A DNA stretch of 64,000 nucleotides, taken from the NCBI RefSeq assembly GCF_000026545.1, contig NC_011601.1; one strand, 5' to 3'. Shown piece by piece: positions 28,360 to 30,154 of this stretch. Positions within the stretch are counted from its first letter, which is position 1. Every line of letters starts with the position of its first letter. This DNA is from Escherichia coli O127:H6 str. E2348/69 (GTDB lineage Bacteria > Pseudomonadota > Gammaproteobacteria > Enterobacterales > Enterobacteriaceae). The notes beneath the pieces are model-generated. The model was given only the letters and a program-made list of their open reading frames with translations, was not told where the DNA came from and searched no databases. The position numbers and the translations under genes are program-made.

Positions 28360-28842
28360 TCACCGGGTCAGCGAATCGTACTGCTTTTCACAGACTCGTC
28401 CGGCTTCTGCGGCCCGGTCAGCGTACTCTGCCAGCTGTCGGTTTCGCTCGAGAGATTTGCTGAGCACGTCGGCAAGCAAAACTCCGGTATCTGCGGCTGA
28501 CGCCCCAGTGCCGACAGTGGAGTTATACTGCCTGAGCTGCTCACGGATGGCAACGAGCTGTTGCTGCAACCTGCCAGCGCGAGCGGCAGCATCAAGAGCA
28601 TCATTGCGCGCCTTGTCGATCCTCTGCTGCGCTTCACGTTCATTGGTAGCTTTCTCCTGTTCATCGTGATTACGGGCTTTATCATCAGCCTGTTTCTGGT
28701 CTTCCTGCGCCTGCGCATACCCGGCATAGTACTGGCGGTCACCGTGGACATTCCAGGCAGCCACGCCGCTGATGACAAGAGCAGCAAGCATCGACACTAT
28801 AAGCAACTGTTTCCAGTACGCTTTGATGAATGCCCAGATCAT
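28360..28842 (-). CDS. Rz-like i-spanin
   Basis: 160-aa ORF, N-terminal TM helix then charged coiled-coil; last gene of the lysis cassette. Confidence 0.7.
28368..28643 (-). CDS. Rz1-like o-spanin lipoprotein embedded in the Rz frame
   Basis: Alternate-frame ORF inside Rz: AGGAGA ribosome-binding site, [26 protein letters not shown] signal with lipobox LAGC; start uncertain (28643 or 28604). Confidence 0.55.
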   Translation of the reverse strand: MNVKRSRGSTRRAMMLLMLPLALAGCSNSSLPSVSSSGSITPLSALGRQPQIPEFCLPTCSANLSSETDSWQSTLTGPQKPDESVKSSTIR

Positions 28843-29465
28843 AACAGTGCCTTACGGGCAGCGGCGTAACGTGCTCGCCGGTCGTCGATACCGTTCTGGC
28901 CACCGTTGATAATCTGCGTGACGCGCACCAGGTCTCCCGTGTACTTCATGCAGCCTTTACTGGCGAAAAACCACGCCGCGCTGCGGGCCGCGTATTCATC
29001 CTGCGACAGCAGTTCAGGCTGAGCGACCAGATCAACCTTCAGACCATTACCGCAATCCCGGTAGTTGTTCAGACCAGTGATCTGGATAAGTCCACGACCG
29101 CGATAATTCCATCCATCACCCGGGCCGTTGTTACCCATGCGCTTGCTGTACACCAGATTGGCGATCGCGCGCTGGCGCTCCAGAGGAAGAGACTTCTCAT
29201 ATGTTTTCCTGCCGAGTGCGTTGGCCTGGTCTGGAGTGATGCGCCCGGCACGGATAAACCCAGACAGCCCGTTAACGCTGTAGTTGAAGTTTTCCTGTAA
29301 CCTGGTAAATCCTCCGGACTCATGCCCGACCTGCGCGATAAACATCGCCTGGTCATCTGGCTTGGTAATGCCAAACTCATTCATAGCAGCAGTGATATGT
29401 TGGTACCAGCGTGCGGCCAGTTGCTCAGTGATACCGGCTGCACGCCGGAACTGGTTAATGTCCAT
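28839..29465 (-). CDS. Endolysin, GH19 chitinase-like lysozyme
   Basis: 208-aa ORF with [12 protein letters not shown] and [12 protein letters not shown] motifs typical of family-19 phage lysozymes. Confidence 0.8.
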
Positions 29466-29763
29466 GTTGAGACCTCGATATTTTGAATATCTGCACGACG
29501 TTACCGCGCGTCTTCAGGACGGCGGCAAGCATGACAGCATTGATGATGACCTCTGATAAATCAGCGGCCATTGGTGTGTGATACCAGATTGCATATGCGG
29601 CGCGGACGGGGATGCTGGCTGACGCCACGATAAGGAAGTAGGCTATCCACCCACCCCACCGGCGGTGTTGCGATCCATTACGCCGGAAGGTTCCGACGCG
29701 GATTGCTATCGCAGAACAGATAACCGCATTGGCGACGAGTAAAATCAGCTCATGAGTTGTCAT
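29455..29763 (-). CDS. Small 3-TM lysis-cassette membrane protein (holin or antiholin-like)
   Basis: 102-aa ORF with three hydrophobic helices, overlapping both neighbours. Confidence 0.5.
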
Positions 29764-30154
29764 CGTCTTTTCTCCCCGGGATTAAATCGCGTGGATTGTC
29801 GGAGCGGTGATAGAGCCAGATACCAATACGTACTGCGACGATTGCCGACACGAACGCGCCAGCAGAGAAGACGATCCCTTTCTCAAAAGAGTCCTGCGTG
29901 ATAGTTGGGATCAGGCTTGCTACGCCGATAAGAATTGAGGCAGTTGGTTTGTAGAATAGAAGCCCGCAGAGGAAGCTGAGCATCGACAGGAGAACCCGGC
30001 GGCGAATTGGATACTCAACGGCCGAGGTAATAAATATTACCGCGCCTGATAAAGCACCAAGCGCCACCTCTGGTGGAACTCCTGCGATCACTGCAGCCAG
30101 AGAACCCATACTAAGCCACTGATTTAAAGACTCACTGGTTAGCTGGGCTGACAT
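29750..30154 (-). CDS. Holin-like membrane protein
   Basis: ORF 29750..30163; ATG at 30154 with GGTGG ribosome-binding site; multi-TM protein upstream of the endolysin. Confidence 0.6.
   Translation of the reverse strand: MSAQLTSESLNQWLSMGSLAAVIAGVPPEVALGALSGAVIFITSAVEYPIRRRVLLSMLSFLCGLLFYKPTASILIGVASLIPTITQDSFEKGIVFSAGAFVSAIVAVRIGIWLYHRSDNPRDLIPGRKDDDNS

Follow-up and report, generated by a model that had tools for sequence, protein, structure and literature searches.

We analysed the lysis cassette of a prophage in Escherichia coli O127:H6 str. E2348/69; the window, i.e. the whole stretch of DNA that was analysed, is 64,000 nucleotides long. Five overlapping genes were found on the minus strand between 28360 and 30154, in the order g1, g2, GH19 endolysin, Rz and embedded Rz1 (Table 1). 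A Shine-Dalgarno-like sequence precedes the start of every gene by 5-10 nt, and in the eight cassettes that we compared all five ORFs are intact with identical overlaps. The ORFs described for the region in the initial annotation are all present in their places, and all are on the minus strand. The order proposed there (membrane protein, 3-TM holin-like protein, GH19 enzyme, Rz with embedded Rz1) matches the GenBank annotation of phages epsilon15, phiV10 and SPN9TCW. Antisense ORFs of the plus strand within the cassette (e.g. 28352-28669 and 28561-28869) were taken as chance ORFs. All five proteins gave Pfam or PHROG matches that lie far above the chance level. Rfam and tRNA scans of the cassette region gave nothing significant, and none of the five proteins matched an NCBIfam family, the one sub-threshold match, of Rz, being spurious.

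Table 1. Positions of the cassette genes and of the flanking features in the window.
Feature	Position	Strand	Description
Host-side hairpin	28183..28210		perfect 12 bp, A/T-run flanks, downstream of yfgI
att core AATCATTCCCACTCAAT	28233..28249		prophage/host junction, overlaps former guaA 3′ end
Probable arm-type integrase-binding site	28321..28331		P′ arm, between att core and Rz stop
Rz	28360..28842	-	160 aa, i-spanin, DUF2514; ATGA overlap with endolysin gene
Rz1	28368..28643	-	91-aa o-spanin precursor, ATG at 28643, +1 frame, wholly inside Rz
Endolysin	28839..29465	-	208 aa, soluble GH19, probable N-acetylmuramidase
g2	29455..29763	-	102 aa, PF05449 (Phage_holin_3_7), 3-TMD holin-like protein
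g1	29750..30154	-	ATG start, 134 aa, PF16931 (Phage_holin_8) membrane protein, 3-4 TM helices
Leader hairpin	30159..30229	-	just upstream of g1; MFE -27 kcal/mol, z -3.2
Palindrome AAACCATATATGGTTT	30216..30231		perfect 16 bp, conserved, upstream edge of leader

The att core lies 110 bp past the Rz stop codon and is the reverse complement of attgagtgggaatgatt, the experimentally proven attP/attB core of phages phiV10, epsilon15 and vB_EcoP_ZX5 (PMC9782041). Phage homology begins at 28232-28234, and the opposite end of the prophage, beside int, has a 16-bp att copy at the stop codon of guaA. The identity of the core with the proven one confirmed the earlier statement that the cassette lies beside the attachment site. 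The cassette and int are at opposite ends of the prophage, and the cassette occupies a prophage end because phages of the epsilon15/phiV10 group have attP between Rz and int. Between the att core and Rz, the 11-mer ATACCGTCACC is repeated beside int at the other prophage end, and through coordinate mapping it coincides with a protein_bind feature of epsilon15 labelled ‘integrase’; from these sequence matches it is probably an arm-type integrase-binding site. The hairpin on the host side resembles a terminator on both strands, and transcription leaving the cassette would be stopped there. It was missed by the terminator scan because its A/T flanks extend the stem, and a similar hairpin is present in the phage arm next to int. 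The early region of the prophage contains three pseudogene fragments.

The same five genes, in like order and with like overlaps and lengths, are found in the Uetakevirus phages epsilon15 (gp23-gp26 and Rz1), SPN1S/SPN9TCW and phiV10 (p27-p30a). At the DNA level the cassette showed 91-92% identity with SPN1S, SPN9TCW and epsilon15 and about 83% with phiV10. In the epsilon15 group the cassette is likewise located between the tailspike/moron region and attP-int, with the same guaA att core. Differences from the group are that the endolysin of E2348/69 has one residue fewer and has diverged at its C-terminal end, that its moron consists of an unknown 335-aa protein and an Acyl_transf_3 protein, and that the host is EPEC O127:H6. 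Considering the gene content, the homology and the attachment site, we are confident that E2348/69 carries an epsilon15/phiV10-type (Uetakevirus-like) prophage at the guaA 3′ end and that the locus is its late lysis module, acting through the canonical holin-endolysin-spanin pathway. It is a standard, already annotated lysis gene set and the system is already known. As a discovery it has little weight, since the module is annotated, the crystal structure of the endolysin is known and the spanins are catalogued; the practical value lies in the o-spanin gene Rz1, which is missing from the E2348/69 RefSeq record, and in five proteins that have no NCBIfam model. In the searchable literature we found no experimental study of g1, g2, Rz or Rz1 from epsilon15-type phages.

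The endolysin matched GH19 (PF00182), the endolysin family phrog_181 (1e-91) and, over its full length, the crystallised SPN1S endolysin 4OK7 with about 95% identity (E 3.5e-135), in accordance with the GH19 assignment of the initial annotation. Only a few substitutions separate it from the SPN1S enzyme. It also matched PaGH19Lys (9EOI; E 2e-33), and the catalytic residues Glu49 and Glu58 are retained in common with both of these enzymes. N-acetylmuramidase activity was shown for PaGH19Lys, the GH19 homologue of P. aeruginosa (PMC12329726), and by homology the E2348/69 enzyme probably has the same activity.

No signal or SAR segment was detected in the endolysin, and no hydrophobic window exists anywhere in the protein: the maximum 17-residue hydropathy (KD17) is 0.36-0.40, the value within the N-terminal 56 residues is 0.36 and the N-terminus is polar, i.e. 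the protein is of the soluble SPN1S type. This bears on the pinholin-type system that the initial annotation had suggested, in which one membrane protein would only depolarise the membrane and thereby activate a tethered SAR endolysin. With neither a SAR nor a signal segment in the endolysin, such a reading is not supported. It would agree with the presence of two small membrane proteins, and the N4-like relative TR2 carries the same PF16931/PF05449 pair while N4-like phages use a pinholin (PMC12642591), but in TR2, too, the N-terminus of the endolysin is non-hydrophobic, and besides the E2348/69 prophage the same holds for the protein encoded 3′ of the pair in 12 of 12 phages. Moreover, g1 with three to four TMDs and g2 with three both depart from the 2-TMD layout of a pinholin. 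We therefore regard a pinholin as extremely improbable and the idea can be dropped. The studied pinholin and regulator of N4, gp62 and gp63 (PMC12642591), were considered as g1/g2 homologues and rejected, their sizes and topologies being different; the LambdaSo lysis system of Shewanella, which uses an HP1-type pinholin, is unrelated.

Rz matched DUF2514 (7e-43) and the Rz-like spanin family phrog_312 (1.6e-56), and near its N-terminus a TMD is predicted at about residues 13-31; the charged domain behind it would lie in the periplasm. Rz1 contains the lipobox LAGC after a signal peptide, with Cys26 and Ser at +2 (no Asp), from which a mature lipoprotein of 66 aa is predicted. It matched the Rz-like spanin family phrog_11621 (1.7e-39), and a Shine-Dalgarno sequence AGGAG lies 10 nt upstream of its start. 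The gene is annotated as Rz1 in epsilon15, phiV10 and SPN9TCW, and the spanins of epsilon15, phiV10 and SPN1S were catalogued in the embedded ‘Bcep176’ family (Kongari et al. 2018, PMC6139136). The earlier proposal of an Rz-like spanin with a lipobox ORF in an alternate frame was thus upheld by the motif, the family match and the annotation of three phages. In all eight homologues the Rz1 ORF is open and the lipobox Cys is kept. Nucleotide divergence is 0.03-0.10 in the Rz/Rz1 overlap versus 0.16-0.27 in the non-overlapping part of Rz, a 2- to 9-fold difference, which shows that the overlap is under dual-coding constraint. An embedded ORF without lipoprotein processing, the doubt raised in the initial annotation, would be at odds with such conservation. 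Rz1 would be lipidated, and the spanins would act by membrane fusion.

Upstream of g1 there is a leader of about 85 nt, which is conserved in eight related phages. Its hairpin has 23 consensus pairs in the eight phages, two of them with compensatory changes, and the g1 Shine-Dalgarno sequence GGTGG is paired into the outer stem. The epsilon15 record marks the equivalent leader sequence as a processing site for RNase III. The initial annotation reported no operator palindrome upstream of the cassette, which proved incorrect: the perfect palindrome AAACCATATATGGTTT is present in addition to the leader hairpin. The correction leaves the reading of the lysis cassette unaffected. A -10-like sequence TATGAT was found at 30204-30209, 9 nt downstream of the CCATATATGG core of the palindrome, and a scan of the coding strand upstream of the cassette revealed no sigma-70 promoter scoring at least 9/12. 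A second near-copy of the 16-bp palindrome is located at 60349-60364. In ZX5, a related phage, over-expression of the phage repressor lowered holin and endolysin transcripts by more than 99.9% (PMC9782041).

The g2 protein matched PF05449 at 1e-29, and its counterpart is named ‘holin’ in the epsilon15, phiV10 and SPN9TCW records. Its AlphaFold2 model has three helices (residues 3-30, 35-61 and 69-84) and its gene shares 14 nt with g1 and 11 nt with the endolysin gene, as expected from the earlier description of a second 3-TM protein overlapping both neighbours. The predicted topology is N-out/C-in and the C-terminus is cationic; with its three TMDs, g2 is thus predicted to have a class I holin layout. 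Homologues of g2 occur in 218 phage records. Against the possibility that the 102-aa ORF is untranslated, which the initial annotation had considered, stand its conservation and a dN/dS of 0.06-0.10 among the eight cassettes. No dual-start motif is present in g2, which begins with MTTHE and has a single Met.

The g1 protein matched PF16931 (1e-10) and the holin family phrog_198 (4e-40), is labelled ‘putative holin’ in RefSeq, and is 100% identical to epsilon15 gp23 and to its SPN1S homologue. Its dN/dS among the eight cassettes is 0.00-0.12, and over g1 and g2 together the range of 0-0.12 indicates strong purifying selection. The four TM segments given in the initial annotation agree with four hydrophobic stretches in the hydropathy profile, but the count is better stated as three to four. 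Through AlphaFold2, helices were modelled at residues 7-24, 28-44, 50-79 (kinked) and 89-119 with a pLDDT of only 68, three, four or five TM segments may be counted with uncertain topology, and the epsilon15 and phiV10 records give the homologue three. The C-terminal tail is net acidic, which is unusual in a holin. A dual-start motif is also absent from g1, where the sole upstream in-frame start (GTG at 30163) adds MVT and no extra charge.

We further inspected 13 individually fetched loci of distant phages. In 13 of 13 the PF16931 gene is directly upstream of the PF05449 gene, usually overlapping it, so that a second conserved membrane-protein gene is always linked to PF05449. The sample includes members of Peduoviridae, Casjensviridae, Schitoviridae and Mesyanzhinovviridae as well as phiP27, and some of the phages are virulent. 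Identity across the distant pairs is 18-32% for g1 and 27-42% for g2. Among the proteins encoded downstream of the pair, five endolysin families were confirmed by Pfam. A constant pair combined with varied, soluble-looking downstream proteins is as expected of a non-specific large-hole holin module.

This distribution also bears on whether g1 is a lysis protein at all. A superinfection-exclusion protein or other membrane moron placed before the holin gene might be imagined, since g1 adjoins the moron region (O-antigen acyltransferase) in the E2348/69 prophage. However, g1 belongs to the conserved cassette and follows the conserved leader, whereas the neighbouring morons vary between phages. 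In GC content g1 is like the cassette (54-57%) rather than the AT-rich moron, and on all 13 unrelated phage backbones, virulent ones included, the PF05449 gene follows directly. We consider a moron very improbable, and from its sequence and gene context g1 appears to be the partner of g2, either as an antiholin-like regulator or as a co-holin.

The holin/antiholin pair offered in the initial annotation is viable for g1 and g2, the same gene pair having been labelled in this way, on bioinformatic grounds, in Burkholderia P2-like phages and in Klebsiella phage Seifer. That g2 is the holin and g1 antiholin-like we hold at somewhat less than an even chance; g2 has the predicted class I layout, and both genes are contiguous with the endolysin gene. 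Exchanged roles, with g1 (PF16931) as the hole-former and g2 (PF05449) as antiholin or regulator, would fit the holin labels that RefSeq and PHROGs also give to g1 and its position as the first gene of the operon. Since g2 has the classic three TMDs with a cationic cytoplasmic tail and its gene directly adjoins that of the endolysin, while the g1 tail has the opposite character, we regard this exchange as unlikely.

Two-protein holins have been reported for some Gram-positive phages. In the same manner g1 and g2 might both be essential subunits of one heteromeric hole-former, neither being inhibitory. The pair was never seen split despite its low sequence identity, whereas an antiholin can usually be dispensed with; from the overlap of stop and start codons, synthesis of the two proteins seems to be coupled and stoichiometric; the constraint on g1 is as strong as that on g2; and public assemblies (P0111) contain g1 and g2 fused into one protein of 232 aa. 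On the other side, linkage is equally expected for a specific holin/antiholin pair, the P0111 fusion was created by the loss of 1 nt within a GGGG run, which could reflect either a mutation or an error of sequencing, and published annotations name the upstream gene putative antiholin. We keep such a two-component holin as a possible but doubtful explanation. Extending it, we might speculate that PF16931 and PF05449 form an obligate two-subunit canonical holin of a widespread Gram-negative type, which would move as a unit among at least five unrelated phage groups and serve any soluble endolysin, with its synthesis gated in the epsilon15 group by the leader hairpin or RNase III site, through occlusion of the first gene's ribosome-binding site; in this full form the proposal is rather unlikely.

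Both Pfam families are ‘putative’ holins, and the searchable literature on PF05449, PF16931, DUF754 and Uetakevirus holins gave annotation-level mentions and no functional tests. The strict linkage of these two ‘putative holin’ families in very different phages is a further point of practical value.

For the module as a whole, we propose that g1 and g2, whose genes overlap and are probably coupled in translation, would both insert into the inner membrane. g2 would accumulate and at a set time open large non-specific holes, and g1, as its obligate partner, would set or restrain the timing. The holes would let out the soluble cytoplasmic GH19 muramidase, which would degrade the peptidoglycan.

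Lambda S-R-Rz/Rz1 shares this three-step logic, a 3-TMD N-out/C-in holin-like protein and a soluble endolysin, and its Rz1 likewise lies wholly within Rz in the +1 frame and has a lipobox. No sequence homology to the lambda families was detected in the E2348/69 cassette, however. Lambda R is a transglycosylase, whereas the E2348/69 endolysin is a GH19 enzyme, and lambda has a dual-start antiholin where the E2348/69 cassette, without that motif, has a separate second membrane-protein gene.

Closer in layout are the Burkholderia P2-like phages KS5, KS14 and KL3 and Klebsiella phage Seifer, in which a 113-140-aa protein with three to four TMDs, a DUF754/PF05449 protein with three TMDs, an endolysin and Rz/Rz1 follow in this order; PF16931 membership was verified for Seifer and 12 other phages, with KS5, KS14 and KL3 left out. 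Their endolysins belong to other families (PG_binding_1 muramidase, lysozyme-like) and identity is low. The pair was assigned bioinformatically as ‘putative antiholin + DUF754 holin’ in KS5, KS14 and KL3 (Lynch et al. 2010, PMC3091744), and it is annotated as ‘holin-antiholin’ in Seifer, also on purely bioinformatic grounds. For g1, the working analogy is P2 LysA, a multi-TMD antiholin encoded by a separate gene, although lysA comes after the endolysin gene in P2, whereas g1 precedes the putative holin gene.

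Five tightly packed genes on the minus strand (28360-30154) compose an ordinary lysis cassette of the epsilon15 type, which has been annotated before. The cassette DNA showed 91-92% identity with Salmonella phages SPN1S, SPN9TCW and epsilon15, about 83% with phiV10 and about 81% with TL-2011b, and the GenBank records of epsilon15, phiV10 and SPN9TCW annotate exactly these genes as membrane protein, holin, endolysin, Rz-like and Rz1. Both the profile matches and these records agree with the order given in the initial annotation, namely two membrane proteins, a GH19 endolysin and an Rz with embedded lipoprotein. 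The second membrane-protein gene (g2) overlaps both neighbours, as had been described, by 14 nt with the first (g1) and 11 nt with the endolysin gene; Rz and the endolysin gene join in an ATGA overlap, and a Shine-Dalgarno-like sequence lies 5-10 nt 5' of each start. The DNA is 100% identical to E. coli E2348/69 (EPEC O127:H6), and among complete E. coli genomes (5,426) about 429 contained at least 80% of the cassette. Our additions are small: an Rz1 gene missing from RefSeq, rejection of a pinholin, a strict PF16931-PF05449 linkage and a conserved leader.

Features of the lysis cassette and its borders (window coordinates; gene matches from profile search)
Feature	Position	Strand	Description
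g1	30154..29750	-	134 aa; PF16931 Phage_holin_8 (1e-10), phrog_198 holin (4e-40)
g2	29763..29455	-	102 aa; PF05449 Phage_holin_3_7 'putative 3TM holin' (1.3e-29), phrog_217
Endolysin gene	29465..28839	-	208 aa; GH19, phrog_181 (1e-91)
Rz	28842..28360	-	160 aa; DUF2514 (7e-43), phrog_312 Rz-like spanin
Rz1, +1-frame ORF within Rz	28643..28368	-	91 aa; phrog_11621 Rz-like spanin (1.7e-39)
att core AATCATTCCCACTCAAT	28233-28249		reverse complement of attgagtgggaatgatt
Perfect 16-bp palindrome AAACCATATATGGTTT	30216-30231		start of conserved leader

The RefSeq (PGAP) annotation of E2348/69 contains only four cassette genes and leaves out Rz1. None of the five lysis proteins had a family-level NCBIfam match; the sole listed match was a spurious, sub-threshold one for Rz. 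The Rz1 start (ATG 28643) is supported by homologues, and its product carries a classic lipoprotein signal peptide with Ser at +2, which predicts sorting to the outer membrane. With its phrog_11621 match and invariant Cys, it bears out the alternate-frame ORF with a clean lipobox noticed earlier within Rz.

Eight cassettes were compared (E2348/69, epsilon15, SPN9TCW, phiV10, TL-2011b, BUCT554, one Klebsiella prophage and phiv142-3). In each of them the five ORFs were intact, with the same overlaps and the same or nearly the same lengths (g2 97-102 aa, endolysin 208-209 aa). g1 showed 100% protein identity with epsilon15 gp23 despite 20 synonymous differences, and dN/dS was 0.00-0.12 for g1 and 0.06-0.10 for g2. 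The lipobox Cys of Rz1 was invariant, and nucleotide divergence was 0.03-0.10 in the Rz/Rz1 overlap but 0.16-0.27 in the 5' part of Rz outside it, a signature of double coding. As far as can be judged from sequence, these features argue against an untranslated 102-aa g2 ORF and against an embedded ORF lacking lipoprotein processing, the two conditions that the initial annotation had named as refuting its reading.

Along its entire length the endolysin aligned with that of SPN1S, for which a crystal structure exists (4OK7; E 3.5e-135, about 95% identity). A further match was PaGH19Lys (9EOI), demonstrated to be an N-acetylmuramidase with the corresponding catalytic glutamates (PMC12329726), whose counterparts here are E49 and E58. 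No hydrophobic window was found when the whole protein was scanned, which marks the endolysin by its sequence as a soluble cytoplasmic enzyme. The pinholin-type (SAR) alternative first offered was rejected on this absence and the 4OK7 match.

Three hydrophobic helices were found in g2 by hydropathy (6-24, 37-59 and 64-86) and by AlphaFold2 (3-30, 35-61 and 69-84), as first proposed. Its strongly basic first loop (RRNGSQHRR) and basic tail predict N-out/C-in, the layout of a class I holin. For g1 the proposed four TM segments were only partly upheld: hydropathy gave four hydrophobic stretches and AlphaFold2 four helices (7-24, 28-44, 50-79, kinked, and 89-119; pLDDT 68), but three or five segments are also possible, and the epsilon15 and phiV10 records give three for the homologue. 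The RRR motif at residues 51-53 points to four TMDs in an N-in/C-in topology. Neither gene has a dual-start motif.

Relatives of g2 were detected by tblastn in 218 phage records and those of g1 in only 37, because g1 diverges faster and not because it is absent. The gene directly upstream of the PF05449 gene was a PF16931 member (E-values 2e-11 to 5e-39) in all 13 distant phages inspected: Hafnia yong2, Pseudomonas phi_D3 and CF74b, Ralstonia RsoM1USA, phiP27, Salmonella TR2, Klebsiella Seifer and 1 LV-2017, Pectobacterium MA12, Escherichia SaltyDalty and 705R4, Shewanella M16-3 and Yersinia vB_YpM_41. The endolysins following the pair included GH19, PF11860 muramidase with PG_binding_1, Peptidase_M15_4, GH24 (PF00959) and, in Seifer, a lysozyme-like protein annotated as soluble; N-termini were non-hydrophobic in 12 of 12 downstream proteins examined (that of CF74b is annotated only as 'hypothetical'). 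Always paired and serving any soluble endolysin, the PF16931-PF05449 module behaves like a canonical large-hole holin system.

The proposed mechanism follows the lambda paradigm for hole formation, for timing, for lipidation and for membrane fusion: g2 would be the holin and g1 its linked partner; their holes would release the GH19 muramidase, and the Rz/Rz1 complex would then fuse the two membranes. Burkholderia phages KS5, KS14 and KL3 have the same arrangement, labelled 'putative antiholin + holin (DUF754)' (PMC3091744), and so does Seifer, where it is called 'holin-antiholin', in both cases on bioinformatic grounds only; literature searches found no functional study of such a pair. We tentatively regard g1 as an antiholin-like timer, a role with nearly an even chance; that it is instead an essential co-subunit with g2 is somewhat less probable. 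A 232-aa protein from public assemblies (P0111, 21 member sequences) carries both PF16931 and PF05449: where g1 and g2 overlap (...LIPGEKTMVTHE..., about 29750-29775), the GGGG run has lost one G and the two genes are fused. This fusion may reflect a sequencing error or an inactivating mutation, or it may be tolerated, in which case it would limit the topologies that the two products can have relative to each other.

The prophage (about 40 kb) sits between yfgI and guaA; genes for tailspike, injection and capsid proteins are found to the right of the cassette, and int is at the far end, beyond the window. The proposed position beside the attachment site was confirmed: the reverse complement of the core is attgagtgggaatgatt, which experiments have established as the att core that phiV10, epsilon15 and vB_EcoP_ZX5 use at the 3' end of guaA (PMC9782041). 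A 16-bp copy at the opposite end of the prophage overlaps with the stop codon of guaA. The cassette lies here because phages of this group have attP between Rz and int. The int-side phage arm (6517-6667 of the locus spanning that end, compared with window 28182-28354) repeats the terminator-like hairpin of the host, AAAAACCCTCTGTA / AACAGAGGGTT, as well as two short motifs from the vicinity of Rz, ATACCGTCACC and ATGAAAAATG; the former coincides with an integrase arm site annotated in epsilon15. Judging from the core and hairpin copies, the phage seems to restore the 3' end of guaA, together with its terminator, when it integrates. On the lysis side the flanking host genes (27069-28142, plus strand) are yfgH, a glycine-zipper outer-membrane lipoprotein whose lipobox (LAGC) is unrelated to phage Rz1, and yfgI (DUF5384). 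Outside the window, the early-right region contains three pseudogene fragments (17123-18608 of the int-side locus; NZ_CP059840.2 1339122-1340607) and, further on near the packaging genes, a pseudogenic tRNA-Gly (NZ_CP059840.2 1343917-1344029), and the prophage may be only partly functional.

Upstream of the cassette no palindrome had been seen at first, which was mistaken, as AAACCATATATGGTTT opens a leader of about 85 nt conserved in 8 of 8 phages though the adjoining extra genes (moron) differ. The leader includes a -10-like TATGAT (TATAAT in phiV10), and no sigma-70 promoter of at least 9/12 was found on the coding strand upstream of the cassette. Its hairpin (-27 kcal/mol, z -3.2) has 23 consensus pairs in the eight phages, two with compensatory changes; the outer stem is predicted to pair with the g1 Shine-Dalgarno sequence, and the equivalent sequence is a predicted RNase III site in the epsilon15 record. 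A near-copy of the palindrome, AAACCATATACGGTTG, followed by a T-run, is located in the early region (60349-60364) and conserved in epsilon15 (2750-2763 of its locus). It is flanked by an ORF of 77 aa in the cro position (60670..60437) and a Cys/His-rich ORF of 66 aa (60289..60089), neither with a Pfam match; it may serve as a weak terminator or as a shared site for a regulator.

The moron (30351-32525, plus strand) is AT-rich (GC 30-39% vs 54-57% in the lysis cassette) and transcribed away from the cassette. It encodes a 335-aa protein with a lipobox-like IIAC near the N-terminus and no Pfam match, and a 357-aa Acyl_transf_3 protein; its position is that of the O-antigen acetylase oac in phiV10 and of the serotype-conversion genes in epsilon15.
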